From NCBI GenBank assembly GCA_008632985.1, contig QPGO01000065.1, positions 62,001-126,000 on the forward strand: a DNA stretch of 64,000 bases. Direction: 5' to 3'. This DNA comes from Psammoneis japonica (Eukaryota). The notes under the pieces are model-generated. The model was not told the DNA's origin and did no database searches. It saw nothing but the letters and a program-made list of their open reading frames with translations. Both the position numbers and the translations under genes were made by a program. Numbering within the stretch: the stretch's first letter is position 1; every line of letters starts with the position of its first letter. Shown here one piece after another: positions 10,571 to 46,238 of this stretch.

Positions 10571-10614
10571 ACGCAAATGAGGCAGCAGCAAAGGGAAGCG
10601 AGGATTCGCCTGCG

Positions 10615-15213: not shown

Positions 15214-16509
15214 ATGCAGTGGGAAGCTTCTGTGACAAATCCAGGGGAAAAAATAACAGCACCCAATCGTCCATTGGATTGTCCAAGAGACTTTTTCCAT
15301 CCGACGACAGGGGCTGACCCCACAAGACCAGAGGATGCTGCTCTTTTGTGGTCATGCCGAAAGGCACGTCCACAACTTGGTGAGGTGGAGACGGTGCCGC
15401 CCAATGGCAAGAAGATGCTTCAAGAGGTGGCACAAATCCGGTCGTCCCTTCGACAACACGTCATGACTCAACACCTGGAGGGCTGTCGGAAAAATGCAAT
15501 GGACAAGGAAGTGGCAATGCCATCAACAAACACCAATCCCGTCACAACAGAAGACTTCAAAAACATTCTGGCAAGCATGGACAACACAACCGAGAATCAG
15601 CAGCTCGTGCATCAAGTTTTCCATGCCTTTCATCGCAACAGAGGATGGCTGGCTGCTGCCATTGACAAATGGTTCACCGCAAACAACATGAAGCTCATGC
15701 CGCACGCCACGGACGCTTCCAGCAAACCTCGCAAAATGTGCCGCGATGACAGAGGCGGGTTTGCTGTGGTGGCATGCCAAGCCAAATGTCAAATAATTAA
15801 AACGTTTGTGGAGTTTATGCTGCAGAAAGCAGGCTGGTGTGTGGCAACTACAATGCACAAGAGCAACAAGGAGAATGGAGGTAAAACACATGTGGCCATC
15901 CCCGCTGCAACCAATGTGGAAACAACAACCAAAGCAAAGTTTTACGTCGTGTCGATGAAACCAGTGGCGGTGAGTTAGTCGCACATTGTTTGTTTGTCCT
16001 TTTGTTGACAATCTTGTTTGGTTGATGACTTCGTTCCCATTTCCAGTCCTTGACAGCAGGAGGAGAACACCAAAGCATCAAAACAAGTTGCTCAGGGAGC
16101 ACCCAGCAGAGACATTGACATTGCATCCCTTGTGGACCTTGCGAAAACAGCAAGCATGTTGTCAGAACAAATGGGAGCTCCGCTGTCCAAGGAAGATTTG
16201 CTCCAGTCGATTCATGGCAGCATGACAGTCACCAGTTCATCCCAAATGGTCAACGAAGAGATTGTGCTTGATCCGCAACATGAGTCCAAAACTCAGGTGT
16301 CAACACTGACCATGGACACCGCGCTAAATTGCCCATCCGAACCAACGGCAAAGCGGAAGTTAACCGAGAAGGAGAAGGAGGCAGAGCAAATTCCTCGTCG
16401 GGAGCGCAATGATGAACTAGAACCCCTCACCATGGATTTGGATGTCATCGATGGTTGGAATTCCAATGACGAAGAGTTGGCAGAAATGGTGTCACAGGTG
16501 ACCATGTGA
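15214..16509 (+). pseudogene. Spliced cargo gene of unknown function
   Basis: ORF 15214-15978 ends within a GTGAGT donor at 15970; a pyrimidine tract and TTGACAG acceptor follow at about 16056; coding-like sequence resumes in ORF 16132-16509. Confidence 0.4.
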
Positions 16510-16745
16510 TTTGGTGGTCCAATTGCTGTGGTGTTGGATGGCTCTAACCAACTTCCGCTTTGATGCCTTGTTTGGCTTGTCAGACACAGTTGTCTGGGTC
16601 CCCTTGTTGCAGGACGGAACAAGAGCCCAGGAACGCTCCAGCGGCAAGAAAAATGCATTGTGTCGTGCGGCTGAATTGCACGTTGCTCACACCACTGTTC
16701 TTCATGCGAAAGGTTGATGAGATGGACGAGCCAGCTGGTGCAAAA

Positions 16746-17280
16746 GAAAAGGTGAGAGCATTGTCGGTGCTCCAGCTGTCAATTTGGACTGTTGCTCTAA
16801 CAGCTCTTTGGCCTCATTGGGTTGCTGGATGCCACACCAAACCATCCCAGACAGTTGAAACACTGGAGTGAGCACAAAAAAAACAAGTGAGTGAACAGAG
16901 TTCTGAGGCAGAGCGCGACACATGGATTGGATCAACCAATCACACTGCTCCTGCTGTTCTTTATGACCAGGCAAATGAGGTGGTTGACAGTGGCAACAAT
17001 GAAAAGGTGAGAGCAATGTCGGTGCTCCAGTTGCAAATGAAACAGTTGCTCTGACCACTTTGGGGCGTCATTGCTGGATGCCAGACTCAACCATCCCCAG
17101 TTGCTGAAATGCCAGAGAGAGCACCACAGAAGACGGTAAGATCGCATTGTCTTGCAGCCAACTGTGCAATTCATCAGACACGTCTCACACAGCCATTGTT
17201 GTTTGCAATGAAAAAGGTCAAAGAGACAATGGCAAATGGCGCAAATGAAAAGGTGAGAGCATTGTTGGTGCTCCGGATTG
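16746..17280 (+). repeat. Degenerate ~250-bp repeat, three copies of a GAAAAGGTGAGAGCA(T/A)TGT(C/T)GGTGCTCC core
   Basis: Core starts at 16746, 17001 and 17247. Confidence 0.7.
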
Positions 17281-18104
17281 CCATTGAGAAGTTGATCTAA
17301 CGGCATTCAATGTGTGTCATGATGGCATTTCTTTTGCAGACTCAACCAGCCAACCACTCTAAACCATTGTTAAATCCATTGCAAAACAAAGCGGTGAGAA
17401 TGCATGATGAAGTCGTGCGGATTGTGCCAAGTGTCTTGGAAACATCACCTCTCACTTTGTTGTTTGTTTGCAACAAAGACAAAGACAGCAAATGACAAAC
17501 GCACACACAAAACTGCAACACTCGTTGTGGCTCAAGTGGATCAAACAACTGCTTGCAATTCGCAGGTGTGGAGCAAACGTCATTGTTGATTTGGCATGCC
17601 TGTTGTTGTGTTGTCTTGTTCACGCACGCAAACCAATTGTGTTTGTTTGTTTGTGTTTGCAGTGCAAGTGCGAGGAGGCTCACTTGTTCCATGCCTTGGT
17701 CCATCAAGATGACTGGAAAACATTTTGCTCAAGCGCACTTCAAAACCAACCCACTGTTCCCTGCAAAGTGCTGTGGCGAAAAGTGTGATGTTGTTTTTGG
17801 ATCAAGCAGTTACAAGGTTGGACAAAGAAAGGCAGTTTGGGTTTGCATGAATGCATTGAATGGTTCTTGCAATTGCAGGTTTGCATTGTGTGTGCAGTGT
17901 TGTCAAAAGACCATGTCAGCTGCATCTAACAAACGGCGCCGAAGGACAACCCGAAACAACAACAACAAATGACAAGGCAGCGCAACACATGCGCACGATG
18001 CAACACAACATGTGATTGCTTGGGATTGATTTCACCGGCACAGTCAGGGTTTGGCGGATGTGTTTGTCAACAGAGTCAATCGAAGCACAGCTTCGTAAAT
18101 GACA

Positions 18105-18547
18105 GTCATTCAGAGCATCAGCAAATTTGTTCATAGTTGTGATCTGTTTAAATGGAGAGGCTGTCGTCGTCCGTTGTTTATTCAGAGCTTTGCTCTAGTT
18201 AAATGTCCGTTGTTTATTCAGAGCTTTGCTCTAATTAAATGGAGATTCCACGGGCATCCAAACATCATTCAGAGTCGTGCTCTGATTGAATGGACACAAT
18301 CACAGCAGCGCTCTGAATGTCAGCACAATGCTCTAATTTACAAATTAATGCTCTGAATACAATGCTCTAAATAAAATTCTATGGCTCCGAATAACCAAAT
18401 TTACTGATTGTGCTCTGCGTGGGCGTTATCGCCTTAATTAACTCTTATTTGCTCTGAATGTCCCACATTGTGTCGGGATAATTTAAATAAAGCGTTGCTC
18501 AGAATAAAATATTCGGAGCATAAATGAAGAGAATCTCATCTGCAGTG
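18105..18547. repeat. Right subterminal repeat region (many GCTCT(G/A)A and TCAGAGC motifs in both orientations) and right TIR
   Basis: More than ten copies of the short motif; the same motif occurs at about 778-835. Typical of CACTA subterminal regions. Confidence 0.75.
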
Positions 18548-18673
18548 AAAGCTGGAAGCAACGCGTTCGAGAACTACGATTCACACAAAAAACTTGAAAC
18601 TTGAAAATCAACAACGACAGAAAAGCACTGACAAACAACAGAAAAACCAAGACTCTCAGTCGTACGGCAGACA

Positions 18674-19692
18674 ATGGCCAAGCACTGGGCGAGGCGATAC
18701 AGACTCACAGAGGCGAAGGAAGAAAAAGAGGCGGAGGCCACTGCAGCTGAAGCTGCTGAAGCTGCGGTCGATGCTGCGGTCGATGCTGCTGAAGCTGCGG
18801 TCGATGCTCACTACGGAAACTCTCATACCCCGCTGGTGGTGGGCGGCCTCAGTTTTTGCCGCTCTTCGCTCCTCAGCCGGCAATCGCCGTTCATGACGGA
18901 TGTTATCCATGCCACGCTGGTGGTGTGCGGCCTCCAGCTTTGCCGTTCTACGCTCATCAGCCGCCACTGAACAATCATGTGGCCAATGACCGTGAGAAAG
19001 CTGTGCACTCGAAGCTATTTGAGGAGAGTGAAACGTTGCAGTTTGGGGAAATCGACGGACTATTGAAAACGCTTGGTGAAGTAAAAGGGTTGACCAGCTT
19101 TGTGCATAGCTTGTTGGACTCCGAGGCTGACCTTTCCATTTATCTTGTGGGAACTCACGTGGATCTTTCTGGAGGAGGCATTCGATGCCCCGCAGTGGAT
19201 TTGATTTTGATTCGAAAACCGCATCGTCTTGATAATTGTCTCACAGAGATTGTCGATTCGGACGCTCAGAATGTAAATCACCCGTTTGCAACTATGGGTA
19301 TGGAATGGTACGATGTCAAGACAACCTTGGAGGAGTACCAAGGACGAATCAAAATTTTGCGTGCGTTGGAGAAATTGGAAGAGTTGCCGGTGAATTGCGT
19401 CCCAAAATGGAAAGACAGCAACAGCAATTTCATGCTTGCACCCAGCGTAAATGCAGCGGGAATTGAAACCGTTCTTCGTTTTATTGACACGCACGGCTTT
19501 TTTGTCGACAGCAAGCTACTTCTGGAATCCCTTCAGAATGGTGTAAATCGACACCTGTATCCAGTGTTTGGTGTCTGGTTGAACGGTGTCTTTCATCAAA
19601 GTGGCGAGCTACCTGTTGCAAGCCACACGAGGACGTCCGAGAACCAAAATGCTGTGCGACCTAAGGGGAAAGGTGGCGATAATGGCCCATAA
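18674..19692 (+). pseudogene. Frameshifted/chimeric paralogue of the 42051-43324 gene
   Basis: Shares 5' context AGTCGTACGGCAGACAATGGCCAAG and two of the 84-bp Pro-rich units. The ATG frame (18674) and the repeat frame (ORF 18856-19692) differ by a 1-nt deletion near 18822; the 3' part is unrelated. Confidence 0.65.
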
Positions 19693-19930
19693 GTCTAGAA
19701 ATACCAATAACACCATTATAAACGACACAAGTCTGATGGATTTTGACAGCATCCTAAGTGGCAACAATACGGTAGCGAGGCTAGGGTCTATTAGTTGTGC
19801 TGCAACAGTATACCGTACGACAGTTGGTTCGAAATACTCCTAGTGCACAAAAGCAACACCTCATGTAACGGTATTAAAAGTATTATCAAATGCTAGCTGC
19901 AGTGACATTTATCTCAGCCGCGCGGCGTCA

Positions 19931-22560
19931 TCATCGGTGTGAAGTCAAAGCTGTAACGGCCTTGCATAAAGCCTCGCCAAACTCAAAGGCTTCTTTCACT
20001 GATCGACGAGGAAGCTTGATAAAGTACAGAGGGTGCAAGTTGAAACAGCATACGCACGATCTTTGAGTCGTCGTTTGTTTGTTGCCGCCTTTAAAGATTC
20101 TCATGAAGAAAGGGACTTCATGTGGTGAGCAAGAACCGTCGCGGTGCGACTTTCTGGGTGGACAAAAGGACCTAGCCGCTTTGAAGTCTGCCCCAAACGA
20201 TGCATCTCTATTCGTGTGCTGTGATACTCTAAGTGACGGGCACATGTTGCGTAACAAAGATTGTATGCTATGATTAGCGACGGATAAAGAGAAGTGAAAT
20301 CACACATGACAACCGGATCGTGGTAAACTCCGGACTCGGGCTCGAGAGTAAGTGCCTGGCACTCAAGTGCTTCTTGTCGCCCTGTGTCTTCCCCCGAGGG
20401 CGAAAAGAAAAAGTAACAACTGTCGTCCTTTTGCTACCCTCGCCGTTGTTACGCGTAGCACTGCGTATTTCGGCTGCAAGCTTTCTTCTGAGCTTCCACG
20501 CGTCATGGGTCTGGGACATACTCTAGCTGCTCAAACAGGAAACAGGATCAGTTCCAATGCTTTTGTCATTATTTGAGAACGGATCGATCTGTTCACCTTT
20601 TTTCGGCCCTCTTTCATCTCACTGTATACTTTGTAAAGCTCGAAGTAGAACGCCTTCAACTTTGTACTGACTGCCACGTATACCCGGGAAACTTTGTGAA
20701 AATTCGACTCCACTCAACCTTGCAGCCTCATCTGCTATACCAATAACATACAACGCGTCAAGAAGAAGGAGGCACGCAAATTCTCGACAAAGGCGGAGCT
20801 GCAGGGCTATCCACCTGTCTCTTCAATGGTCGCCACCGTACCACGCCGAGAGGACCCAATCATCGTGGTACGGAATTCATTTGTTTAGAAAAGTAGCAAC
20901 CATCGCCGGTAAGTAGGAAGCATTGGGATGTTTAAGGCAACAATCTTCCATCCACAAACTACCAGCCTTCCCGCAATGGAAGTCGCCGCATCACCCGGGC
21001 CAACTCTCACTTCCAAGGCCACTGCCGGCTTATTGATGATCCCATCTGGTCGATTCGCCTTTTGACACTATTGTAGCACTTGGCTGTTCATCCTTAAAAA
21101 CATCTTTCCTGACGGTGCTTGGTTTTGCTCGTAGAGTTCGACCCAGGAGACGTACCATATCCACCCCTGAAGAGTTAGTGGCCGTCGTGTCGCTTATCGC
21201 CAAGGAATATTTCCCTTGTTTCCCTAGTAATGCGCCACGTTCAAGTATAAGGCATACATCCCAAAGCCCACCTTTAGTATCCCAATCTGACGATTGAAGC
21301 GAGCCTCAGGAGAAGATGACGTTCATTACGAACAGGACATCCGAAGCTTTTACAAATGATTTTTGGAGCATGATTGTTACCATTCTCTTTTCGTTCAGCA
21401 ACATCAATGGCCTCTCCATCTCCGGGATCTCCCTTCAAACGTATACCGATGCAAATATTCTGTCTCTCTCTGAGATTGGCTTCATTGCGATCTCTTTCGA
21501 CTCGCTGATTCCAGTTTTACTGGTCCGGCACTTAGCATGGATTTCAATGGACATTATCGAGAGACACATCGGAAGATCGAAGAAAAATGATAGCTTTTTC
21601 ACTGCAGAACATGCTGAAAGTTGAGGGCGAACACCAACCAGACCTGTGTTCATTGCGTTGCAGCTTTCAATCCTCAGCCACCTTCGACGTAAATGCGTCC
21701 ACCAATCTATCCTATGCCATCTAATGCCTGCGGTGTCTCTTCGACATGCAATTGAGACATGGTAAGGGTTTGTAGGGCACAATCAGCGTGCCTCCTTTGA
21801 TTACTTTGGTTCGAATAAAGTGGCCGTTGCTATGAAGTTGTTCGTGATTGCCCTCTCGCAGTTTCGTCAGTGATGCCAGAGCCTCCAGTCTCCCGTTAAT
21901 CAACTTGCAACGTTCAATGTTGAACTTTGTCTTTGCGGCATATCCTGTAGGCCGCGCCCACGTCTTGGTTCGTTCCTGCTCTTTGGTTTCCACCTCGTCA
22001 TTACTACTTGTCCGTAGTGCAAAGACCACACCGGTACATACGCTGAAAGAGATTCCCCAAGTTCAGCCAGAGCGATGTGGACGTCAGAAAGCTACTAAAA
22101 GCACAGTCATTGTAGGGTCCGATATCATCATGCTTCTAAGGGAATCTGGTAACTTCGCATTGTGAAATAACGCTTAAAAACGACGGACCACTCTGCAAGT
22201 AATCTTGATGGTCTTGACGCACAACTTTTGATAGCATTTGAAATACCCCCTTCTCAGTAACAGTCCAGCAGTCATCATTGGTAGAATCCGAGTCCAAGAG
22301 AGGTCCAAATTCCGACTCCCCCGTTTGTTCAAGAGACGGAAAGGGCTTGATTTGAGTAACTTAAACGCCTTCGATTTCCATGTGTTGTTCTGCAAGGTTA
22401 TCTTTTTGAGAAACAAAATCATCTTAACTGACGTGAAAGGGCTCCCATCAATGGCGACTCCCGAAAACCGATGGGATAGAGTAGATTTAAAATCTGGACC
22501 CTTACCTCTCGATTCGTCTTCTCCCCAAGGAGAGGCAGCTTCTCTGGTTTCCGACGCCAT
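19931..22560 (-). pseudogene. REV3: Decayed DNA polymerase zeta catalytic subunit (family B), many indels
   Basis: Collinear fragments on the minus strand: LSIMSIEIHAKCR (~21550), ERHLLLRLASIVR (~21300), EAARLSGVEFSQSFPGIRGSQYKVEGVLLRAL (~20640-20730), ALECQALTLEPES/YHDPVVMCDFTSLYPSLIIAYNLCYAT (~20245-20370), FIKLPRRSVKEAFEFGEALCKAVT (~19950-20025). The YGDTDS region appears deleted. Confidence 0.85.
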
Positions 22561-22807
22561 GATGCTTGGAGTGCATGGTATTTTGATGTCATCATATGGC
22601 GTTCAACTTCGACCGATTATTCCAACTTTTTTGTTTCGAAAGCCCATAGACATACCATATGCAAAAACGGCTCTGGCACAAAGTATATAATCAATAGCGG
22701 CATTTCTACTTGAACAAAAACAACCCCATATTTCCACTGTTGCCTCCCGCATCACCAGTACTTTCGTTTGTCGAGACAGCACACCGAGCGTTTGCTTCCT
22801 GGGGCGT

Positions 22808-23080
22808 ATGATATGGATGTACACCGACCGTTGTCTTTATGGGAATCATGGCGTTTGCTCGGGAGAGTGTTTCCAAGCCGACTTTGGCCTCGGCTAGAGT
22901 GGAAGACGGCGAGAGCATGGCCACAATGTTGGATTCTTTTACAGCGTCTTGTTGTAAAATATCAAAAGCGGATTTTTCGTCGTCGTGCGGTTCTGACTGA
23001 AAAGAAATGAGATCTTCATGCCACAAGTTGCAGTCCACGTCAATCAACCGGGGTGATGGGGATGGCTGGATTGCTGACAT
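22808..23080 (-). pseudogene. N-terminal fragment of a TatD-family nuclease
   Basis: LIDVDCNL...IKTTVGVHPYH match TatD N-terminal motifs; similarity ends right after GVHPYH. Confidence 0.65.
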
Positions 23081-23314
23081 GATGGTGTGAGCATGAATAA
23101 TTCTACCAATGCGGTGTCTCGTCGTAGTACTCGATATCAGCCTTGTGGAACCAGTTGCTGCAGTCAATGTTGGCACAAAGGAGAGTCTCATTGGCAAGAA
23201 GCGAATTACCAGCAGCGCAACAACAGCTTAGCTCTGTACCCCCCTTTAATAGTAGATCAGTGAACAGCAGATGCCGCTTGCGTACATTGAAGATGATAAT
23301 AAGGAAGAGCGTCA

Positions 23315-23675
23315 TGGCGGACACCACCGCGACCGCGACAGCCGACAGAACACAGCACAGCGCACAGCCACAGACAGATGAGGCCGCGTGCGCATTCGAG
23401 TAAATCTAGCTGCCGAATAGGCTCAGCCACTCACAGTCTTAGTACGATAACGCGAATACAACCGATAAGATGCTTCTAGGCCTGTTACAACTACAACGGA
23501 TGCAACAAGCCTAGAAGCATCTTATCGGTTGTATTCGCGTTATCGTACTAAGACTGTGAGTGGCTGAGCCTATTCGGCAGCTAGATTTACTCGAATGCGC
23601 ACGCGGCCTCATCTGTCTGTGGCTGTGCGCTGTGCTGTGTTCTGTCGGCTGTCGCGGTCGCGGTGGTGTCCGCCA
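23315..23675. repeat. Perfect 167-bp inverted repeat with 27-bp spacer, ending at the N (23676)
   Basis: Arms 23315-23481 and 23509-23675 are reverse complements. Confidence 0.95.
23397..23509 (-). repeat. Unmutated partial LTR (3' 113 bp) of the neighbouring copia family
   Basis: Revcomp aligns without gaps to 29893-30005 with 9 substitutions. Confidence 0.9.
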
Positions 23676-23870
23676 NCGAATGCCGGTCGATCGAAGGGTG
23701 TATGATGATTATCATCGCCTGGCATCAGTGAATGCACGAGCAGTGAGGAGACATGGCGCCAGTCTCCATGCTTCTAATGGCCATGTGTTGTCGTCAACAC
23801 AAACTGAGACATCCTTTTGAATTTATGATTTCTCACATAACTCTGTTTTCCTGCTGGCACAGGTACCACC

Positions 23871-25298
23871 ATGGCGGCTGCTCCTCCGGATCCTATCGAG
23901 ACAGTGCTCGAATGGATCGGATTTGTTGATCCAGCTCAACGAGTCCCGCTCATGGCGGACTTTGCGTCTTTTGACGATTTAGAAGACCTCAAGGAAGAGG
24001 ATGTCGATTCTCTTGCGTCTTCGTACACTAGGAGGACGGTTGCTGAAGGGCGCATTCATTTTGGTTTGGCCCGTAGTCGTCGACTCAAAGCTCTTGCACA
24101 TTGGGTTCAGGACTTTGGTCGCGTGAGCGAGAATCCTGCTCTGGATGGGCTTGATCAAGCCACTTTCCGTGCTGCTCTCCAGATGGCACTTAGTCGCACC
24201 GAGATCCGCTCCCAGACCAAGGCCACTGCTGACTCTTTTGGTAAAGAGGCGTCACCCGGAATGTCAGAGAGCGAAAAGAATTGGGTCAAGTGGAGCACCG
24301 GTTTGACGAATGTGCTTGGCATTGTGCTGGGAGTTTCTGGCGCGCCGTTGGCACATTGCATTCGTCAAAACGATGCACCCGAACCTCAAGGCCACAACAC
24401 TTTCGTCCAGAAGTGCGTTGCATGTGCACCCCTCCAAGGCCCAGCTTTCGAGGCTGATGCTCGTACGGTTCATCTGCTCATCGAGTCCCTGACCACGGGC
24501 ACACCCAGTGAGCAATGGTTGAAGGACCACAAGAATGAACAGAACGGACGAGTTGACTTTAGGGCGTTGTGCGACCATCACCAGGGAGAAGGTAACACCT
24601 CCCGCCGCATCTCTGAAGCCGAGCGCATGGAGAATGCCCTTCATCACAAGAGTGAGCGCGCTGTGCCGTTTGAGTCGTTTGTAAATGAGCTCCAAGAAAT
24701 GTTCAACATTTTTGACAAGAACGACGAACCAAAAACGGAGGCCCAGAAGTCACGGATCCTTTTTGAGAAGACGCAGCACCAATCACTGCAAGCAGTGGTT
24801 GAAACCTTGAAGGTGCAGAATGAGTTTGGAGGAGGCATCACGTTCACCACGGCGGCCAATCATCTTGCCGCCAAAGTCGCCACCCTTCCAGAGATGATTG
24901 CGCATCATCGTGCGATTGCCGCAGTTGCCTCTGGAGGAGGAAGAGAGGGTGGCACCATTTACAATGAGGATGGATCCATCAACACTGGACACCACAAAAA
25001 CTGGCACCAGCTGAGCAAGGAGGACAAACAGAAGGTTGTCGACGAGCGCGTGCGTCCAGGTGTCGCCAAACAACCTGAACCAACCAAACGTCATGCTGCA
25101 TCCGTCAAGTCGCTCAAGAAGAAGAATCGGAAGCTGTCGTTGCAGCTCAAAGAAGCGAACCGCAAAATCTCCGCCCTGAACACTAATGTCAGTGCCGATT
25201 CTGGCGATGATGAATCAAGGGCTGGTGGTGGAGACGGAGATGATGCCGGAGACGCATTCGGTGGTCGCAGCGAAAAGCGCCAAGGAAAGCAGAAATGA
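23871..25298 (+). CDS. gag: Gag-like protein of the CoDi element (open but mutated)
   Basis: 475-aa ORF upstream of pol with CoDi-like GVSGAPLAHCIR and NGRVDFRALCDHHQGEG segments. Confidence 0.85.
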   Translation: MAAAPPDPIETVLEWIGFVDPAQRVPLMADFASFDDLEDLKEEDVDSLASSYTRRTVAEGRIHFGLARSRRLKALAHWVQDFGRVSENPALDGLDQATFRAALQMALSRTEIRSQTKATADSFGKEASPGMSESEKNWVKWSTGLTNVLGIVLGVSGAPLAHCIRQNDAPEPQGHNTFVQKCVACAPLQGPAFEADARTVHLLIESLTTGTPSEQWLKDHKNEQNGRVDFRALCDHHQGEGNTSRRISEAERMENALHHKSERAVPFESFVNELQEMFNIFDKNDEPKTEAQKSRILFEKTQHQSLQAVVETLKVQNEFGGGITFTTAANHLAAKVATLPEMIAHHRAIAAVASGGGREGGTIYNEDGSINTGHHKNWHQLSKEDKQKVVDERVRPGVAKQPEPTKRHAASVKSLKKKNRKLSLQLKEANRKISALNTNVSADSGDDESRAGGGDGDDAGDAFGGRSEKRQGKQK

Positions 25299-25337
25299 CT
25301 GCTGAGCTGGACCCTGCTTGGTTGCATCATAAACTTC

Positions 25338-28300
25338 TTGTTGTGGTTGCCACAATGGGGCGGGGGACAGCCGCATCAATCAAAGGAGCAGTGTCCACGT
25401 GCCTGTGTTGAACGCATCTGTGAGGTTGTCACCTCGACGAGACGTGTCTCGGCAACGCGGTCTGACACCACACGAATCACCCACATCCGTGATGTGAGCA
25501 AGGCACAGCACGGGCGTCTTGAAATGGATTCGCATGCTGACACCAATGTTTTTGGTCAAAACTTTACCCTCTTGGGTTGTTCTGGACGAGAATGTGACGC
25601 ATCGCCTTTTAACGAGGGATGCGAGTCCATCAAGAGTGTCCCAATTGTCTCTGCAGCCACGGCGTGGACTTCACCGACATCGGGAGCAACTTTTGTTCTG
25701 GTCTTCCACGAGGGCTTGTGGATGCCGGAGTCCATGGAGCACTGGCTGGTCAACCCAAACCAGCTGCGGCACTTTGGTGTTAAGGTTCAGGACAACCCCT
25801 GCTCCGATTCGCCACTGCATGTCCTTGCTGAGGACAGATCTTTCATGATGCCGCTTGAAGCTGTGGGGACCAATGTCGTTGCGGCAACTCGCACTCCCAC
25901 AGAGCAGGAATTGCACGAATGCCCCAAGATCCAGATGACCTCCCAACAACCTTGGGATCCACAGACCGTCAAGTTCAAATCTGTTGGAACTCGACGATCT
26001 GCGGAGGAGGAAATGGAGCTAGTTCGGTCAATTGCGACGATCCACACCAATCTGACACACGAGTTCAAAGCTGATCCTGTCTGCAGCAACCCTCAATCCG
26101 GGGACTGTTGCGATGAGCGATTCATTTGTGGAGTCGATCAAGTCCAATCAAGGCTCACAGCCGCCGTCAATGTGGAAATGGAGCCAACAGTCCAGATCTC
26201 CACCACGGAAACAATCGGCGAAGGACCTGAAGACTTGGCACTCCCGAAGACGTTCATGTCTGAGGAGAGACACAGTGACGTGTCGGCTGCTGACTCAAGT
26301 GAACGATGGTGCATGGGACTCAAGCAAGCAGCAAGCACGCTCAAGAAGACTACACAAAAGCTCGTCAGGTCAGCGTTGATGCCCATGGGTCGGCGCTGTC
26401 GGGCCGATCGGATGTTCACAAGGCCCAGGTTACGGGGTGAATGGGCAACCGACACGGCAGACGGCAAGGTGGTTTCGCTGGAGGGCAATCGACATGCCCA
26501 GATCTTTACAAACAAGCAATGCTTCGCTGCGATCTATCCCATGGACAAGAAGAGCAAGGCTGGCAAGGCTCTCAAGACATTTTGCCAGGAATTTGGCGTG
26601 CCAGAGAAACTCCTGATGGACGGATCTAAGGAGCAAACAAAACCTGGCACGGAGTTCATGAAGACCGTGCGCAAGGAGGGCACAGACCATCACATCATCG
26701 AACCTGATCGACACAACCAGAATCCTGCAGAAGGAGTTGTGCGCGAGGTCAGACGCAAGTGGTTCCGCATCATGGTCAAGAAGCAAGTGCTGTGGCGACT
26801 GTGGGGCTGCGGATTTACGTGGACATGTGAGACCATGTCTCGCACGTTCCTTCGAGCACATCATTTGGATGCAGGAGCACCACTGGAGAATGTTCTCGGA
26901 GAGACCGTGGACATCTCGGAGTGCCTCGACTTTGGATTTTATGATTGGGTCTGGCACAGGGAGAATGCCGGTCCAGGGGACGAGAAGCTTGGTGGGTGGC
27001 TTGGTGCATCTCACAGAACAGGGAGTCTCATGTCGCATTGCGTTCTGACACAGACAGGCAGTGTCATTTCGAGAACTTCTGTCCAACGAGTCACCAATTT
27101 GGAAGCCGCTGCTCAAGAGAAAAAGGCAGAGTTCAACAGTTTTGACGAGGAGATCAAGCGACGGTTGAAGGAGCAAGATTTCCCCGATGACGAGGATCAC
27201 AAGATCAGTCCCGAAGACTGGAAAGACTTCCTTGGATGCGACAATGAATTCCTCGATGAGCATGATTGTGCCATGTCCTCAGAGGAGGCAGCAAATGACG
27301 ACGACGACAAGAAAGACGAGGAAGCCTCACCGGAGGCGGCGGACTGGGGATGCATTAACATGGAGGTTGCACTTCCACGAGATGACAATGGTCCTGAGTT
27401 TGCTCGTGTCACGAAGAGGTTGAGAGATGCCAATGGTGTTCTGACAGGAACGGCGAATGACAATCCCATCCTTGACACAAGGATGCATGAGGTAGAGCAC
27501 CCTGATGGGCACCATGCTGTGCTCTCTGCTAACTCCATCGCCATGAACATGTTTGCTCAGATCGACGAGGACGGAAACCGGCACGTCTTGTTCGATGAGA
27601 TCGTTGATTGCCGCACCAACGGGGACGTTCCTGAATCCGAATTCTTTGAGACCGAGCGAGGCGTTCGGAAGAGGCGCAAGACTGCCAAAGGATGGGAACT
27701 TTTATTCCAGTGGAAGGATGGAAGTGCGACTTGGATCGACTTGAAGATTGCAAAGGAGAGCTTCCCAGTCCAAGTTGCCGAGTTCGCCATTCAGCGCAAG
27801 ATCTCGGGTGAGGCAGCGTTTGCTTGGTGGGTTCCTCATGTCATGAAAACCCGCAAGCGTTCCATTGCGAAGGTCAAGTCGAAGTGCTGGCTACGAACAC
27901 ACAAATTTGGCATGCGGATCCCAAAGAGTGTCAAGGAGGCGATCCAGATTGATCGCGCAAATGGCAACACACTGTGGTGGGACGCCATTTGCATGGAGAT
28001 GAAGAATGTGCGGGTTGCTTTTGACAAGCATGAAGGGGAGCTCAAGGACATGGCGCCTGGTTTCCAGGAAGTGAAGTGCCACATGATTTTTGATGTCAAG
28101 TTGGGAGAAAACTTCCGCCGCAAAGCTCGTATGGTGGCTGGAGGCCACACCACTGAAACCCCCGCACACATCACTTGCTCCTCTGTCGTCTCTCGGGATT
28201 CGGTGAGAATTGCGCTGACGCTTGCTGCGCTCAATGACTTGCAAGTCTTTGCATGTGATGTCCAGAACGCCTGCCTCACTGCCCCTTGCAGGGAGAAGAT

Positions 28301-29598
28301 TTGGACCAGAGCTGGGTCTGAGTTTGGCGAAGATGAAGGTTGCATCATGATTGTGGTCAGGGCCCCACATGGATTGAAGAGCTCCGGAGCAGCGTTCAGG
28401 GCTTTTCCAGTGGAGACGCTTTATGATCTAGGGCACAAACCGAGCAAGGCTGATCCGGATGCATGGATGAGACCTGCGGTGAAACCCGACGGATTCGAGT
28501 GCTACGAATGCGTTCTAGTTTACGTGGACGACGTGCTGTCGATCAGCCACGAACCCATGAAGACGATGGATGGCATCAGGTCCAAGTTCAAGCTCAAGGG
28601 TGATGAGGCAGCCGAACCGGATTCCTGCCTCGGTGCTGCGCTTTCCAAGATGACTTTAGCCGATGGGACTGCCTGTTGGGCAATGTCTGCGGAGAAGCAC
28701 TGCAAGTCCGCTGTCCAAAATGTAGAGGACAGGCTCGGCAAGGAGGGGAAACATCTGCCTGGCAAGGCGACAACCCCATTGAGCAGCGGATGCAAACCCG
28801 AGTTAGACACTGCTGGCGAGTTGGACGCTGAAGGACTCCACAGTTGTCAAGAGCTGATTGGCATGCTGGTTTGGGCGGCAGAACTCGGTGGAGTGGACAT
28901 CCATTTGGAGGTTTCGTCAATGTCTGCTCACCTCGCTCTCCCTGCATTGGTCATCTGGAACAGGCATTGCATGTCTTTGCATGCCTTGAACAGGTCCCAA
29001 AGCGTCAAGCAGCATTCGATCTGGCTCATCCCAAGATCGATGAATCACGATTCGTGAAGTGCGACTGGTGTGACTTCTGCCGAGATGCAAGAGAAGCCAT
29101 TCCGACAAATGCACCGCCAGCTCGAGGCAATGCAGCATCGACACATTGTTTTGTGGATGCTGACCATGCCGGAAATGTTGCCGATCGCCGCAGCCATGCA
29201 GGTGTCTTGATGTTTGTCAACCGGGCACCCATTGTGTGGCACTCGAAGCGTCAGAATGCCGTGGAGGCTGGCACATTTGGAGCAGAGATCGTTGCACTCA
29301 AGAGTGCCACAGAGCTTGCAGAGAGTCCACGACACAAGCTTCGAATGTTTGGAGTGCCGATCGAAGGGCCAACAAATGTCTTCTGTGACAATGAGGCCGT
29401 CCACAAGAATTGTTCCATTCCTGAGTCTACACTCAAGAAGAAGCATCACTCCATTGCGTGTCACCGCAACGCGAAGCTGTTGCTGCGGGGAATGTTGGGA
29501 TTGCAAAGGAGGGAACAGAGACAAACCTTGGCGATCTGTTCACGAAGGTCATGTCATCTGTCAGGCGAAATTTTCTGTTAGACAAGTTCGCGCATTAA
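25338..29598 (+). pseudogene. pol: Copia Pol polyprotein (protease, integrase, RT, RNase H); frameshifts near 28942 and 29469
   Basis: MDSHADT protease; DTADG/MDGSKEQ/NPAEGVVRE integrase; RKARMVAGGH, YVDD RT; FVDADHAG, CDNEAV RNase H; stop TAA at 29596-29598. Confidence 0.95.
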
Positions 29599-29773
29599 GA
29601 TGGATGCGTGAAGCGGTGGTGAGTTTCTTCCCCAGTGAGGGTTCACACCATGCACAAAGGATTGGCGGCTTTTCCCTGGCAAGGGTTTTATGTCGATCAA
29701 TGAGTCAAGATGTTTGAGCCAGATCACTGATGCAGCATTGGGTCGAATTGTGCCTTACGAGTCAGGCACATTT

Positions 29774-29782
29774 CGAGGGGAC
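29774..29782 (+). other. Polypurine tract
   Basis: CGAGGGGAC immediately before TG at 29783. Confidence 0.7.
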
Positions 29783-30007
29783 TGAGTGAAATCCGATGTG
29801 TCAGAAACTGTCCAGTGCGCTCTGTGAGTTGAAGTGGCGGAACTGTGACGTGGTGTCGGTGGGAAAGTGACCATGACCATCGATCGGTCTCACTTGTTGC
29901 ATCCGTTGTAGTTGCAACAGGCCCAGAAGCATCTTGTCGGTTGTGTTCGCGTCATCGCACTAAGACTGTGAGTGGCTGAGCCCACTCGGCAGCTAGATTT
30001 GCTCGCA
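29783..30007 (+). repeat. 3' LTR, about 225 bp (TG...CA)
   Basis: Starts TG after the PPT; homology to the second copy stops at CTCG(CA) 30005-30007. Confidence 0.8.
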
Positions 30008-32750
30008 CTGAAGCATTCTGCACTGACTGAAGGCGACAGCCAGGCGGTGACCGTCGGACCCGCTGCGGACTTGTTTGAAAAAGAAGCTCAGATCTCCAAG
30101 AAGAGAAAAACAAGCTTTGCAAAACTTGCTTGTGCTGTGCTTGCACTTGTGCAAACACTGCACTGGGCTGCATGCTGTGGGTTCAGGCACAGCAGATCAG
30201 TTTGAAGCAAGAGCTTGGTCTGGCCACCCACATCTCCTTGAGAGGTGAGCATCCCTGGCAAAAATGTCGGTGTGGTGCCAGCCCAAGCAACTTTTGCCAG
30301 AGGCTGCTGCCACAGGAAAACAAGAGCAGTGCCATGTGTTTTCGTTCTCAAACTGGCAGCACCCCCACGTGGCTGAAAACTTGTTCATTTTTCAACCCAG
30401 CAGGGGCAATGGTGTGGTGCACATTCTTGAGAGCAACCATGACTTTGTGGCAGCAAGTTGTGGTGTGACATTCTCTCTGAACCCACCAGCAATTTGCCAC
30501 AACAAGCTCTTGAAATGTTGCTGCCCTTGTTGTGCACTTTCATGTGTCAACAACAAAGTCAGAAGAGGCTTCAGCGGTGAGCACAGTCCCAGCAAACTGC
30601 CGGGCAGCATCAACTCACACAATGTGGAGAGGACACAAGCCAAGGAGAGGTGGGTGACAGCACAAAAATGGCAGCTGGCAGTGCTTGAGATGCTGTTGCA
30701 ATCTCTGAAGCTTTGTTGGCTGCACCTTTTTGTGTGGGCATGCTGCTGCTCACAGAGTGCTCCTGCAGCTCACTTTGAACAATGGGCGCAGCCAGGGCTT
30801 GCACCAAGCCAATCAACCCAGCAGCAGCACATCTTTTTGGCCAGCAAAATTCAAGGCTTGGTGCAGCCAGCAGCTCAAAAAAAGAAGCTGCTGGACTCAA
30901 AAACTCTCCACAGATGAGAGAGACAACAGAAATCATTCGAAAATGTTGCGTGGGTCACAGTTGACATTTTGCATGAGGAAAAACACAAAATCGTGTGGAA
31001 ATGCACACAATGTCATGCAAGAGAGTGACTGGAGCTAACAACTTTTTGGGAACTGAGCTGAAATCCTGTCTGGTTGACGGCATTGGCCTTCACCATGTGA
31101 ATCAAAATGCCGTCAATCAGATGGCATTTCAACTGATTTCCCGAAAAGTTGACATTCATGTGTGGATAGATGGACAGACTGACAACAATTGTTTTTGGCA
31201 CTCTCCTGCACAATTTCTGCGTGTGACTCTCAGGACCCGAATGATTCCCATTGGAGAGGGACAGGACAGAGACAGAGAGACAGAGAGACAGAGACAGAGC
31301 TGGCTTGTTTGTTGCCAAGTGCCAATGAAGCAAGTTTGCTGCCCAACAAAGAAACTCTGGAATGACAAATTCAAAAAAGTGTCTGGAATGTCACTGAGTG
31401 GAAATTCGTTGCAGAATCAGCACCAGGGGTGTCAAAAAATCACAAAATTCCAGACTTTTCTGGGGCCCTGGTGCTGCGTCTGCAAAACTTTGTTGTTCCA
31501 GAGTTTTTTGAACGGTGGCTTGAACAAGTTGAGCTCATGAGGGCTCCTTCTCAAGATTTTTGGTGATCTTGCATCCCCAAGGAACGCTGCCTTTGTCCAG
31601 CTGTGCTTGTTGTCCCCGTTGCTGAGGCAGCCCACACTTGTCCTCCCACAATGTCCCACCACAATGTTGCATGCTGGTGCTGTGAGCTTGATCCTCATCT
31701 CTGTGTGAGAGCCACTGGCTGTCAAACTTGTTGAACTTTTGCTTGTTTTGCATGTCTGCACTTTTAAGGCTCAAAACACTGGATTCATGCTGAGGCAAAA
31801 ATGTGACTTCTGCACCACCAAAAAGACCTGCCAGATGAACAGGAAGTCCCAAGCAGCATGACAATGAAACATCAAATGTCCACAATTGTGTGTCTTGTGC
31901 AGCTTGCAGCTTGTCTTCAATGGGGCGCACTGGCCCCACAGACACAGAAGCAGTTTTTCTTCTCTGGTCTCAGCTCCTGCCAGGTGCGCTCTGGTCATGC
32001 AACATGCACACAAAGAAGAGCTTTAAAAGGACCTCAAGCTTGCCACCAAAAGTCAGCCTGTTGGTTCAGTGCCCCTCAGAAGAATGGCTCCAATGACACC
32101 CACAACAAAGCAGTGTGTCAGCTGCTCACTGAGTGGAAAGCACCAAGGAGACTGGCTCCTGTTTGTGCCATTGCCGCGCAAGTGTGGAGCAAGCTGGGAT
32201 TTTGTCTAAAAAAACCAACTGTTGTCCCTTTTCTCCCCACAACTCCTTTTGTTTCAAAATGGCAGTGGAAGCCAAAAAGCCATCAGAGAAGCCAAGTTGC
32301 CACAGACACTCTTTGAAAATGCCTGCACTTTTCTCCTGTCTGCTGCCTCACTCTGGGGTTGGGAAGGAGCATTTCACAGCTCTGGTGAATCCACATCTCC
32401 ACTCCAGATGCTCTCAAGATCTGCTTTGCCGGCACCAAATGTCTCTTGGCCCTCCAGGAGCAGCACAATTTTGGCGGTCTCCAGTGCATGATGTGGCATG
32501 GCATGATCGGGCCATCACTGCTGTCTGCCTGTCTGGCAGCAGCTTGCGCACTTGCAAATGTCGGCCAGAGCATTACTGTGGCAGCATGGTGCAACGCAAC
32601 AGGCCTTGCAGACAGAATTCAAGGGCCAGCTTGAGACAGCTTCAACTTTTTTGTGAGCCTTTTGGACGATTCAACATCAACGACAGCTTTGATGTTATGG
32701 AAAATCAAAAATGAGCAGAGGTGCTGTCGACGTTGAAGGTGTTCTCCACA
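30008..32750. other. Heavily decayed, probably TE-derived DNA depleted of both TpA and CpG
   Basis: CA/TG-saturated composition, no recognisable intact domain, abrupt return to normal TpA content at about 32760. Confidence 0.6.
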
Positions 32751-32891
32751 TTCTCTTTGCAGATTTCTGTATTGGAAAGTCGTCTTACTTGCGCGAAACC
32801 TAGAGTACAAGTCTAGTGACATAATCCTAATGTCAGATTTACAATAATTATTCGTCTGCTGCTTCGAGTAGTGTTGTTACTGAGTCACCAG

Positions 32892-34236
32892 CTAGGAGTA
32901 TGGCCCAAACCACGGATCCCCTCCATCATAGGCAGGGTCTCGTTTTCGAAAGCCGGTTTCAAAAATGACAGAAGTGCATTCTACTCCAGCATCACGAATC
33001 ATGGATTCAGTCCAAGCCGCCATACCAGCCTTGTTCTTCATCAATCCGTGGTAATGAAATCTAAATATAGTTCCATCAATGGTCTCCAACAATTCGGCAC
33101 AGCTCCCCAACACATCAAGTACAGGCTGAATCTCTTGCACCAATGCCTGGTCAATTTCTCCCTTTCTCAAGGTACCCACAAGGGTCCCGTAGTCTTCGTA
33201 TGGCTGTCTTTGAGCCTTGTGGTATTCCAATGACTTGCCCTCCGGCAGCCACTCACAATTCTTGGATCGTGCCAGTTCAACGGCACGTTGACGAGCGCGA
33301 TGAGGAGTCATAGAGTCGAAATCTGTCATGTCTTCTGGTTTGGTGAATCGATTGTTGGTGTAGTTCTTTTCTGGATAGGACAAGGCCTCGGGGTATCCGT
33401 GCCAAGTAGCAACGTGACGAGGAACTTGCAATTCCGGAAGAAACGGATCGACGTAGGTGTCAATGATACCAAGCGATTTTCGTAGTTTCACAACGTCCTC
33501 GTTGAATCCAATTTCCAAGTCGTTTTCAGGAAAAACTGGTTCGAGAATAGTGTCGTCTCGTGTGTCATCTGCAATCATGTACGAGTCGATGGGTGTAACA
33601 ATCGTACGGGTGTCAATCGGATTGGATGGTCCAAAGATCGGATCCCACCCCACCTCAATACCTTCTTTATCCTTTTCAGGCTCCTTTACATACTCCAACT
33701 CGTCACTAAGGTCGTTAGGATCAGGATCTCCAGCTTCTGGATCCCACTCGTAATCAAACTTGGATTTGAGATCAAAAATATCATACGTACCCAAGGTTGA
33801 CGAATCAATCGCATCTGGGTCGTCCGTATCAAATTTCAAATTCTGCACCACCTTCTTCTTCCGGATCTCCATATTCATCAATCCATGCAGGATACTTGCG
33901 AACTCCGTCCTCAATTTCTTGCAGGATTTCCGCTTTGCGCTCCAATTGTTCTTCTGTTTCTATGATTGCACCCGGCCTGCCGCCCGTAAGATCGATGTTT
34001 GCCATGTCCGGGCGTTTCGGTTCGACTGCATTCAGCCTCGTGCTTCTTATCCATCTTGCACTGGGTGGTATCCAAGCATGTGATGGACGCAGGCACCATG
34101 CAAGGAGCGCCGCCGCTGAAAGCACATACTGTACGTCATGATTGTTTTTACAGTACCGGTAAGTTACGGTATGTGGTGGGTGATGGCTGGACGGTGTCAT
34201 CGTTCTTTTATTTGTCCTACGCAGAAGTGACGTCAT
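32892..34236 (-). CDS. Acidic protein of unknown function with diatom-type bipartite plastid-targeting peptide; frameshifted by a 7-bp duplication
   Basis: ORF 33829-34239 (VLSAAALLAWCLRPSHA-W, signal peptide plus ASAF-like motif) joins ORF 32892-33914 once one TCAAATT copy at 33829-33842 is removed. Normal Tyr content (14 in 340 aa). Start codon uncertain. Confidence 0.75.
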
Positions 34237-36906
34237 CACTTCCCAAACTTCCGAAGATTTTCATGACCAACGACGGGCTTGGATTCGAGAGCGCGACGTA
34301 GAAATCTACGAAAGTTTTGTACTAGAGAAACGCAAATTGGCTTTCTTGTGGCCTCGTCCGGTGAGAAAACGACGCATCACAGTCACAATGGCGTGTGAGA
34401 CGCAGTGCTCTCCACTCCGTAACTATAAAGATTTGGCTCATGATACGTTGTGAACTTGTTCTATACACTACGAAGTATATTATCATTGCTTGAAGTTTTG
34501 ATTTTTAAGGCAAAGGATCATCATGAGTATTACAATCAAAGTGACGGATGATTTGCAAGTCGCAATTTCGATCTTGTACACAATAGAGCTCCACTCGAAG
34601 TTGTTGAAGCTGGATTTGAAGGATACCAAATCGTTATCGAAGGTTGAATCCGACATGACAAAGTCGGGAGCCTCTGCGGCTCTCCCAAAAGTAGCCATTG
34701 GATGCTCCAGCAAATTCCGAATAGTGCATAGAGAAAGAGTTTGATGTTTGATGGAGCAAAAGAAGCAGCTCCGAGCGAAAATAACAGCTTTGAGCAATAA
34801 AGACACACACCAATCAAACCAGCAGAACGAACCCCTCCTGCTAGTTCCGTCACGTCTTCACCCACCAATTCCAGTCGCCCATCAACTAGAAGAGCTCAAA
34901 AAGAGGCCATGGAAGCGGAAGAGAGCATCCCAGCTCTTACTGAGCGCACCGCTGGCCGCTGGCGAGGAAAAAAAACACGTTCTCACTGTCCATTTCATTC
35001 ATTAAAGATTCAAGATCATATATTTATGTATCTTATAAAATGCATGATAGATAACTTTATGCTAGTCTTCTCTGTCTCATCGCAAAATCGTTTTGCTCAC
35101 GCAACCTTCTGGGACTGCTTTTTCAGCAATCATTGCAGCAAAGGGACTCCCCACGCCCATCGTCCACGTAGACCTCGCCACTTGTTGAGTATTTGAAGGA
35201 CCTTGCCAGAGCTCGAGGATGGCCTTGAGCGGAAGACCGTCTGTTCCCAGGCGAACTTGTAAACGATCAACTGAATGATCAAATTGAAATGTTTTTTAAG
35301 AGTACCGCTGTCAGTAATGTCTTTCTGAAGATGCGTTGCTTCCTCTCTTTTCCCTCGATCGGTGTCCTCCACATGGAAGCCACGGCAGGGAATTCCAAGG
35401 TGTCCAAGCTACGAACCTGCATTGTGCAAGGATATACACCATATTACCATATTGACTTGAGCTCTCAAACTCGGCCTGAAAAGTACAAAGCCATCCATCC
35501 ATGCTCCATGACTGAACCCATCGTGGGGTGTTTCCCTGTCCTTGCCGCAACGACTTCAGCTTCAACAGGACTGTGCGCTCTTCCACTTCCCAAGTTTACC
35601 TGTGTTCGCTCGGGGCTTGCTTCAAAGTGCTCCCTCGAGGTAAAGGAATAAAATGGCACATCGCCACCATTGTCACCGAACTCCGGCCCAAGCATCATTC
35701 CATCCGGTCCTCCCATTCGCTCGGGTCCAAACGCTGTCTCTGGGCCGCTACTGCTCGGATCGAGTTGGCATCCCGTCTTCTGGCCGGCTGTCCTCCAATG
35801 CTAATCCTTTTCATTCTTCTTTTTCTTTTCTTGTTCTTCCGTAATAGAGACAGAACATTAAGTCCCATAGAAAACTGTTGTCCGACTTCGCAAGCTCTGT
35901 AAGCGCTCGTTCGGTAGGATACACAGTCGGGTCGCATCTCCTGGTAGTGCTAGAGTCGTTTCCACCGGTGATCAGAATCGAGTGAAGACGCCTCACCAGC
36001 CTGAAAAAACACTGTACAGTAGATTGCTGTCTCGAAGAGAGACGTTTTTTCCTTTAAAGACCACTCGCATTGGACGCACAGAACGTAGTTAGACACGACG
36101 TATAGTGCCTGATAAGATTGCATGGTATTGCTTGTCAAATGGTAATAGTTATTGAGTGGTAGGCCTCCACATTTCTCACACCATCATGGTGCGGTGTTTT
36201 TTGTGCGGCCGCGGAGGGCGGAGGTGATGAAGCAGGATGGTTCTTGAAACAACCGTGCTTTTCTACGTGCCTCGGTATAAGACCCTGTCCAAACACTATC
36301 ATACGTATGATCATACCTGACGTCATAGCGCCTAAAATGAGCCTCTTCGAAAAAATTAGTGGTTATTAGCCCTATGCATGACGTAATTTTAGGCCATACC
36401 AACTTTCATGAGGATGTTTGTTCTCGCGAGAACAGACTTCCTCGGAAACATCATACCCAAACATCATACCCCACCGACGAAACACGAAAACAACCGATAT
36501 GCATCGTTTTTTTGATACGGCCAAAGCGCATGTGTCTGTATATTATACGAGGCAACCACATGAGACCATGCATGAGCCGTTTGTTGTCTTTGGGGGGCTT
36601 TGTGTGCCATTCTGGACTCTTCTGACACAACCATTTTGCCAAACAGTTTCTTAAAATAAATTCATGTCATACACTCTTACAGACAACTGATTTATCCATA
36701 AGTTATACATAAGCATGATTTTTTTATCGATAGGTGTCCTTTGTATGGCTTATTGTCGCCTTATGGTTGCGTTCTCGTCGTCATGGTCATGTCGTTCTCG
36801 TCGTGTTGTTGTCGCTGGTTCATTCATGTTGTATCTGGTATTGCTTCGCGTACTGTAAGTTTGAATCATTCGATTAAAATGTGTACGTACGAATGTGTTT
36901 GGACAT

Positions 36907-46230: not shown

Positions 46231-46238
46231 TGTCGCGC

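Follow-up and report, generated by a model that had tools for sequence, protein, structure and literature searches.

Hypermutation of invading DNA directed from A:T to G:C was reported only in 2026 and, as far as the main text of the report goes, for one alga and mainly for two integrated viruses. In mutation accumulation (MA) lines of Bigelowiella natans, 231 of 302 mutations were located in an integrated nucleocytoplasmic large DNA virus (NCLDV) and a virophage (Mettrop et al., bioRxiv 10.64898/2026.01.13.699255). According to the same main text, nearly all of the hypermutations were A to G or T to C, all were at TpA, and the process arises de novo, at a more than 100-fold raised rate, in living lines. 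The text also describes 124 clusters of TpA-poor 1-kb windows, reports that TpA-poor coding sequences are enriched for reverse transcriptase and DDE domains, and puts forward an ADAT2-like deaminase. Here we describe a stretch of 64,000 nucleotides (contig QPGO01000065.1, positions 62,001 to 126,000; "the window" in the following, with positions counted from its first letter), in which a Ty1/copia-type element lies between two inverted copies of a short repeat resembling a long terminal repeat (LTR), next to gene DNA of normal composition.

We believe, with a probability of about three in four, that a process acting in place has converted TpA to TpG and CpA in the repeats of the window and has spared the genes, and that the two LTR-like copies represent unmutated and mutated versions of one sequence. 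The kind of process seen in the window is already known: it was first described in 2026, and the window is a further example. A full-text literature search for a TpA to CpA/TpG process returned Mettrop et al. as the sole match; the remaining papers dealt with repeat-induced point mutation (RIP) or were unrelated. The words "retrotransposon", "LTR" and "trinucleotide" do not occur in the main text of the preprint (bioRxiv 10.64898/2026.01.13.699255), the supplement of which may contain an analysis of sequence context.

Blocks of TpA depletion

Over the entire window, the observed/expected (o/e) ratio was 0.25 for TpA and 1.4 for CpA/TpG. The 46,202 bp measured in depleted blocks contained 247 TpA (o/e 0.09), with ratios of 1.54 for CA, 1.52 for TG and 0.62 for CpG. 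The 15,902 bp measured in normal blocks contained 700 TpA (o/e 0.64), and the corresponding ratios were 1.16, 1.10 and 0.98. In the depleted blocks, the deficit of TpA was about as large as the surplus of CpA and TpG taken together. The borders between the blocks were sharp, to within about 100 bp, and were found at about 18096, 32770 and 43552.

1..18095, no strand: TpA-depleted block, 1-12 TpA per kb compared with 51-73 expected
18096..23314, minus strand: TpA-normal gene block, with the exon 20104-20433 matching the DNA polymerase zeta catalytic subunit
23594..32770, no strand: TpA-depleted block comprising the element and its right flank, of which 30006-32000 is also CpG-poor
32771..43552, no strand: TpA-normal block, TpA o/e about 0.5-0.8 and CpG about 1
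43553..64000, no strand: TpA-depleted block

The match of the exon to the DNA polymerase zeta catalytic subunit (7e-16 for DNA_pol_B in Pfam, 2e-14 in PDB) indicates that the normal block beside the palindrome described below is host gene DNA. Of the long open reading frames (ORFs) in this block, the one nearest to the palindrome is 22709-23227, which stops 88 nt short of it. It was at first taken to be TatD-like, an impression that was dropped, and a PDB sequence search with it gave nothing.

The depletion also altered the stop triplets. TGA accounted for 1991 of 2352 stop triplets in the depleted blocks, compared with 559 of 1173 in the normal blocks. A change of TA to CA or TG creates no stop and erases TAA and TAG, and reading frames therefore remain open. 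"Intact" ORFs in the depleted blocks thus say nothing about function. Long ORFs were present there on several frames and both strands, and gene callers would over-predict. A Pfam search with 26 long ORFs and with 34 ORFs from the gene blocks identified just the DNA_pol_B exon and weak matches. The ORF 56088-58478 (797 aa) was considered as a gene and rejected, with no Atlas match and no homologue; it is probably a spurious frame without TAA and TAG. For annotation this is a warning in two respects: where TAA and TAG are almost missing, long spurious ORFs result, and proteins with Tyr replaced by Cys or His escape domain searches.

CpG was also scarce in some sub-blocks. The regions 30006-32000, 44001-46000 and 50001-53000 had 0-3 TpA per kb and 8-19 CpG per kb, compared with about 56-69 expected. 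This suggests a separate and ordinary decay of CpG, namely methylation decay that affected some repeats and not others.

Direction and sequence context of the change

The composition of the blocks was complemented by three sets of sequences in which ancestral states could be read: the pol ORF of the copia-type element, a second, unrelated coding element, and a tandem repeat.

1481..3781, plus strand: second, unrelated multi-copy ORF, 767 aa, Plavaka/Transposase_21-like according to an Atlas lead only
9058..10577, plus strand: tandem repeat of 281-bp units with 0 TpA, the units differing mainly by CA/TG doubles
23841..25298, plus strand: ORF in gag position, 485 aa, 2 Tyr, no family match
25299..29057, plus strand: pol ORF, 1252 aa, Ty1/copia-type, RVT_2 at about 28107-28595
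28832..29581, plus strand: continuation of pol in another frame, 249 aa, 0 Tyr, collinear with the C-terminal part of relatives

Of 7999 candidates that were scored, 1939 qualified as relatives of pol at E <= 0.001; the best had 63% identity, and most were located on metagenome contigs about 6.5 kb in length. Tyrosine made up 0.4% of pol, compared with 2.7-4.2% in 120 relatives. A column was taken as conserved Tyr if at least 70% of 60 relatives had Tyr, which was the case for 30 columns. At these columns, pol of the window had Tyr in 3 cases, Cys in 14, His in 8 and Phe in 5, and the remaining residue classes of the protein were kept at 56-100%. Replacements of A by G at the first codon position were preceded by T in 12 of 13 cases.

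The ORF at 1481-3781 behaved in the same way. It had 84 relatives, many of them on contigs of Mb size, with 48% identity at best, and no Pfam family was identified for the ORF or its relatives. Tyrosine was at 0.39%, compared with a median of 2.98% in 44 relatives, and 9 conserved Tyr columns were occupied by Tyr (2), His (5) and Cys (2). Over both elements, both outcomes on the sense strand were present at Tyr codons, with 16 Cys (A to G on the sense strand) and 13 His (A to G on the antisense strand).

The tandem repeat at 9058-10577 comprises about 5.4 copies in a higher-order pattern of two units, with u1 identical to u3. Between u0 and u1 we counted 7 CA/TG doubles, 2 differences of CpG type, 1 other transition and 2 transversions; 15 CpG were intact in each unit. 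A CA/TG double requires an ancestor with TA or CG, and the low level of CpG decay therefore points to TA. It also follows from these doubles that the process acted in place, after the duplication, and on both strands. Judged from the alignments, the polarity in the element body, the second element and the tandem repeat is from TA to TG or CA.

Loss of TpA could alternatively reflect ADAR-like A-to-I editing of element RNA that became permanent through reverse transcription, or it could reflect selection against UpA in RNA. ADARs prefer a U on the 5' side according to the main text of the preprint (bioRxiv 10.64898/2026.01.13.699255), and retroelements are among the targets, which would fit. 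Nevertheless, we consider this explanation very improbable. Both sense-strand outcomes were present, as counted above, and DNA that is not retrotransposed (the tandem repeat, non-coding flanks and the transposase-like ORF) was equally depleted. The tandem units had diverged in place. Moreover, TAG was among the least depleted contexts, opposite to the preference of ADARs for a G on the 3' side. Selection, finally, is not expected to destroy conserved Tyr residues of a catalytic domain.

The TpA sites that survived were not a random sample. Comparing depleted with normal blocks, ATAT occurred 0 versus 50 times, ATAC 0 versus 57 times, and GTAT 1 versus 61 times. Other contexts were refractory, namely TTAG (37 versus 28), CTAA (22 versus 22) and TTAA (41 versus 44). 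After strand symmetrization, the loss was 97% for TAT, 91% for TAC, 83% for TAG and 78% for TAA. The outcomes at Tyr codons, pooled over the elements, allowed two possible readings of this pattern to be told apart. Codons after a purine, which present TAY on both strands, gave 12 His and 9 Cys, and 0 were kept. Codons after a pyrimidine gave 1 His and 7 Cys, and 5 were kept (Fisher 0.038 and 0.0046). These outcomes indicate that the A is altered when a pyrimidine follows on its 3' side, on either strand (5'-TAY-3'). A preference set by the base before the T was considered and ruled out by the 7 Cys versus 1 His at the pyrimidine-preceded codons.

The inverted repeat pair, the palindrome and the element

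The two LTR-like copies and the structures around them are the following.

23315..23396, no strand: TA-free 82-nt segment beyond the LTR copy, with its mirror image at 23594-23675
23315..23675, no strand: near-perfect palindrome of 361 bp, arms 23315-23489 and 23501-23675, loop 23490-23500
23397..23509, minus strand: TA-rich LTR-like copy (11 TpA), with a full hairpin (9-bp stem, 11-nt loop) at its 5' end
within 23397..23509, minus strand: 3' (U5-like) end of the TA-rich copy, pointing left
23676, no strand: single N, the sole one in the window, directly past the right palindrome arm
29893..30005, plus strand: TA-poor LTR-like copy (3 TpA); the full 3' LTR may correspond to 29868-30007

A sequence-only reading of this DNA had claimed that 23397-23509, once reverse-complemented, can be aligned to 29893-30005 over 113 nt with no gap and 9 differences, 8 of them at TpA, and that 8 of 11 TpA and no CpG are altered. 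Pairwise alignment reproduced all of this. The differences were transitions in 9 of 9 cases; five were TA in the left copy and CA in the right one, three were TA and TG, and the ninth was a T/C difference in ATT/ACT, 2 nt from an altered TpA. The 3 TpA of the right copy were all common to both copies, and the 7 CpG of each copy were identical (0/7 altered). Chance does not account for the match (blastn E 2e-41 within the window), and the probability that at least 8 of the 9 differences fall within the 22 TpA positions of the 113 is 5e-6. If the pair stems from a single insertion, and only then, the rate amounts to 1.3 hits per TpA site, compared with 1 change at 91 other positions. The right copy has kept TpA in the contexts GTAG, CTAA and CTAG, 2 of 3 belonging to the refractory YTAR class, and the contexts of the pair are in line with the TAY rule, though noisy.

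The sequence-only reading had also derived a TpA-specific process with the direction TA to CA/TG, which was borne out by the two coding elements and the tandem units. Its suggestion that the pair gives the mutation spectrum directly went too far, because nine differences are too thin a basis and the remaining window gives a far better spectrum. The pair is a neat illustration, and it is too small and structurally too uncertain to bear the claim alone.

Several observations weigh against our reading of the pair and of the element between its copies. Viewed from the right copy, the differences fall on 21 positions that are the C of CA or the G of TG, with a P of 3e-6 that is equally extreme; the statistics are thus symmetric, and the pair alone gives no direction. 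The TpA o/e ratio was 1.42 in the left copy, above the 0.64 of the gene blocks, and 0.53 in the right copy, near that value. One of the differing sites lies in the terminal hairpin, which is more stable in the TA-poor state (-5.5 compared with -2.0 kcal/mol). The rule of TAY per strand fits just 5 of the 8 changes in the LTR. No third copy was retrieved that could polarize the two LTR copies: the 64-kb window contains no further copies of the repeat, and a metagenome scan with a 20-nt core of the LTR returned 1 contig, L001, which was unrelated by blastn and was rejected as a chance word match.

Data for the element family point in the same direction. They come from a public DNA sample consisting of 3 runs of one study, as contigs (Logan) only. 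Depth in the run sample was 55-100 for the gene flank and summed to 1000-3200 for the element, indicating that the element belongs to a multi-copy family. Family copies in the run differed by all four transitions (A>G 96, T>C 108, G>A 109, C>T 99), and each transversion was counted 4-13 times. Among the 40 best-supported fixed differences between this copy and the family, out of 499 entries with another letter, 4 were CA or TG in the window and TA elsewhere, 1 was the reverse, and 17 were private CpG losses. Such a small number of window-specific TA losses implies that most of the TpA loss in the body is common to the family. The loss may therefore predate this insertion, and the body is then not a simple "after" state. 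Finally, since it is situated in a palindrome that ends at an N, the left copy may stem from another copy or may in part be a product of assembly.

The first of these points could mean that the TA-rich copy is the derived one, produced by RIP-like C to T changes at CpA and TpG in the left copy, for example as an inverted duplication. The symmetric statistics, the two o/e ratios and the more stable hairpin of the TA-poor copy would all agree with this. Even so, we regard it as improbable. All comparisons in the window that could be polarized run from TA to CA or TG, and the repeats of the window are depleted of TpA rather than enriched. The palindrome arms are identical at 11 of 11 TpA, while RIP mutates copies independently. 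In addition, the surviving TpA of the right copy are in contexts that also persist in the depleted blocks, and this copy is contiguous with a right-hand flank containing 0 TpA over the next 1 kb, so that an unmutated state there would amount to special pleading. We continue to take the left copy as unmutated and the right copy as mutated, the most economical reading of the right copy being that it went through the process, as did the element body and the TpA-free flank. The loss of 8 of 11 TpA in the right copy compares with a loss of about 86-88% in the body.

The structure at the left copy is unusual. Each arm of the palindrome is 175 nt long; the arms mismatch at 2 positions, neither of them more than 8 nt from the 11-nt loop. 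The axis is the 5' terminal hairpin of the repeat itself (9-bp stems, 11-nt loop), which is also present in the right-hand copy. The loop is in the canonical orientation on the minus strand only, and the right arm opens with the exact complement of stem 1. This indicates that the inverted left copy is the complete one, and that the copy in direct orientation (23501-23593 aligned with 29913-30005, 93 nt, 90%), which sits in the fold-back arm, was folded back from it. A snap-back during reverse transcription that left a complete LTR on the plus strand was considered and is ruled out by the orientation of the loop. The fold-back may be due to snap-back synthesis at the hairpin in the cell or may be a product of sequencing or assembly.

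The arms also mirror the 82 nt past the end of the repeat. This segment could be flanking DNA of an older repeat or a leader of the element, of which the contig joint described below favours the flank. No paralogue of the 82-nt segment or of the right flank was found within the window. The N at 23676 is probably a scaffold join or an ambiguous base.

We read the two copies as both ends of an insertion, inverted and with their 3' ends outward. Contigs of the run sample departed from the window sequence at 23397 (four contigs) and at 29890 (five contigs). In one contig of run X1 the sequence passes from about 23386 straight to about 30006-30015, and the element is missing. Three joints tie 23251-23373 to 30026-30063; one of them, with 19 letters between, is readable as an element-free junction, and the remaining two run from 23278 to 30030 and from 30063 to 23251. 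The word GCATT at 23392-23396 recurs at 30013-30017, where it is 7 nt off (chance about 0.01), and would be an ambiguous target-site duplication. Two positions of the gene flank, 22858 and 22885, have a letter other than that of the window in every X1 and X2 contig that covers them, which indicates that the sample is near, and not identical, to the assembled sequence.

The same structures make it quite possible that the process is real and that the pair nevertheless does not stem from one insertion, the left copy and the palindrome deriving from another copy (younger or solo) or from an assembly join at the N. The sole N of the window is found precisely where the right palindrome arm ends, and this arm is a fold-back of the left junction, with the stem-1 complement and the 82 nt mirrored past the LTR. 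Inverted copies with outward 3' ends are unlike the layout of an LTR retrotransposon. The X1 contig that joins the two flanks without the element, the contigs that depart at both copies, and the high depth of the family compared with the gene flank would also be accounted for. On the other side, the copies show no ordinary substitutions save the one T/C beside an altered TpA, as expected of very close relatives. The density of TpA past the N declines gradually and without a step, from 12 in 424 nt (23677-24100) to 38 in 5690 nt (24200-29890), showing that the depletion is graded at the left end of the element. The words at the fold-back junction cannot be derived from the canonical LTR alone and presumably come from some real molecule, and GCATT remains a candidate for a target-site duplication. 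Of the "before/after LTR pair" proposed in the sequence-only reading, the near-identical repeat was thus upheld; that it is an ordinary LTR pair is put in doubt by the inverted copies, the palindrome abutting an N and the element-free contig junction.

Under our reading of the pair as unmutated and mutated sequence, the events would be as follows. In repeats and mobile elements, the process would convert TpA to TpG or CpA through A to G changes on either of the two strands, with an A followed by a pyrimidine (5'-TAY-3') as the best target, and neighbouring genes would be spared. The copia-type element at about 23.7-30.0 kb would have lost about 85-90% of its TpA in this way, and the right LTR-like copy at 29893-30005 would have lost 8 of 11. 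The left copy at 23397-23509, situated 82 nt from the edge of the gene block and within the fold-back palindrome, would have kept all 11. By analogy with the proposal for B. natans, the enzyme may be a DNA adenine deaminase resembling ADAT2 or TadA. The left copy might have escaped owing to chromatin at the gene border, owing to the perfect hairpin that it forms, which would resist a single-strand-specific enzyme, or because it is a younger copy.

More tentatively, and with considerable doubt, editing of TpA to CpA/TpG could be the main transposon defence of the host, comparable to RIP. It would act on both DNA strands at 5'-TAY-3' through an ADAT2/TadA-like enzyme, saturate tens of kb and stop about 100 bp from genes. 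If this were true, the unmutated LTR copy would mark a protected site, where either the chromatin of the gene border or hairpin DNA denies single strands to the enzyme.

The assignment of the element itself depends mainly on its pol ORF. RVT_2 was identified in pol (PF07727, E 6e-10, 39.6 bits at a cut-off of 31.6), compared with 62-69 bits in relatives. No Pfam match to integrase, RNase H or gag families was obtained at E <= 5 in this copy or in relatives, and the sole support for integrase and RNase H is the full-length collinearity of pol with its relatives. A PDB sequence search with the pol profile gave nothing, and scans of viral contigs with pol and the pol alignment identified no relative. 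The continuation of pol in another frame means that this copy has a frameshift. With 27 of 30 conserved Tyr gone, this frameshift and the lowered RVT_2 score, the copia copy is degenerate as judged from its sequence. The candidate 3' LTR, 29868-30007, starts with TG, ends with CA and has a purine run just upstream. A primer-binding site (PBS) was not identified, and Rfam and tRNA scans of the window returned nothing. The 12 nt at 23720-23731 resemble the initiator-tRNA PBS of plant copia elements, with one TA to CA change, at a non-canonical place about 125 nt off the repeat end.

Other repeats were noted in the window. At 31039-31151 there is a diverged hairpin repeat with 55-nt arms that are 78% complementary, within a stretch of very high depth (summed depth 6252 in the X1 bin 30852-31185); it is possibly a high-copy foldback element or one resembling a miniature inverted-repeat transposable element. 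A 127-bp tandem repeat at 36903-37372 and 36230-36280 lies in a TpA-normal, AT-richer stretch (GC 0.42-0.44). An 84-bp tandem repeat occupies 42743-43157 in one gene block and has an inverted copy, 78-92% similar, at 18794-18966 in the other. The ORF 42054-42545 (minus strand), which overlaps the 84-bp repeat, had a weak match to FG-nucleoporin repeats.

Comparison with known systems

The palindrome resembles fold-back (snap-back) inverted duplications at short inverted repeats in that its axis is on a hairpin with a 9-bp stem and the start of its second arm is complementary to the first stem; it may be of cellular origin or may stem from sequencing or assembly. The element resembles Ty1/copia elements (Pseudoviridae), which are abundant in marine metagenomes, in its RVT_2 domain, in the order of an ORF in gag position followed by a long pol, and in the short terminal repeat that follows pol, has TG..CA ends and is preceded by a purine run. 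It differs from them in its inverted, palindromic 5' repeat, and a clear target-site duplication was not found.

Hypermutation from G to A by APOBEC3 and hyper-editing by ADAR are similar to the process in the window in being of deaminase type, dependent on context and directed at mobile or viral targets. However, they act on cDNA minus strands or double-stranded RNA and are strand-asymmetric, whereas in the window both strands and non-retrotransposed DNA were affected. An ADAR-type process would be limited to the transcribed strand and to retro-copied sequence; the 16 Cys and 13 His and the in-place divergence of the tandem units do not conform to this.

Fungal RIP shares with the window a regional, repeat-directed hypermutation by transitions, a dinucleotide context, inactivation in place and the same four dinucleotides. 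RIP, however, converts CpA and TpG to TpA and enriches TpA and AT, and the window shows the opposite, with no stops created. Instead of being TpA-rich, as after RIP, the repeats of the window had a TpA o/e of 0.09 and were rich in CpA and TpG.

The closest likeness is to the process in B. natans as described in the main text of the preprint (bioRxiv 10.64898/2026.01.13.699255). There, changes are exclusively A to G or T to C at TpA and give TpG and CpA, only foreign or silent regions are affected while the rest is normal, and the long-term footprint is low TpA with high CpA plus TpG in clustered 1-kb windows. Transitions, restriction to TpA, the direction from AT to GC and confinement to repeats were all found in our window. 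At the cut-offs of the preprint, 48 of 64 1-kb windows pass for TpA and 28 of 64 pass for both measures. The differences concern the targets, which in our window are transposons and tandem and dispersed repeats, and the degree of depletion, with an o/e of 0.09 that is near saturation compared with 0.45 given for the NCLDV region. In B. natans, de novo events were seen in MA lines, whereas the window is known from sequence alone.

The window adds several aspects to this system. About 90% of TpA was erased from transposons and repeats, and adjoining genes were untouched. The preference for a 3' pyrimidine and the in-place action on tandem units are new to the comparison, and CA/TG doubles between repeat units offer a test of polarity that requires no outgroup. 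The rule of TAY per strand can be checked against the published MA calls and candidate deaminases. If the host is other than B. natans, the process would extend to more eukaryotes than the published account covers.

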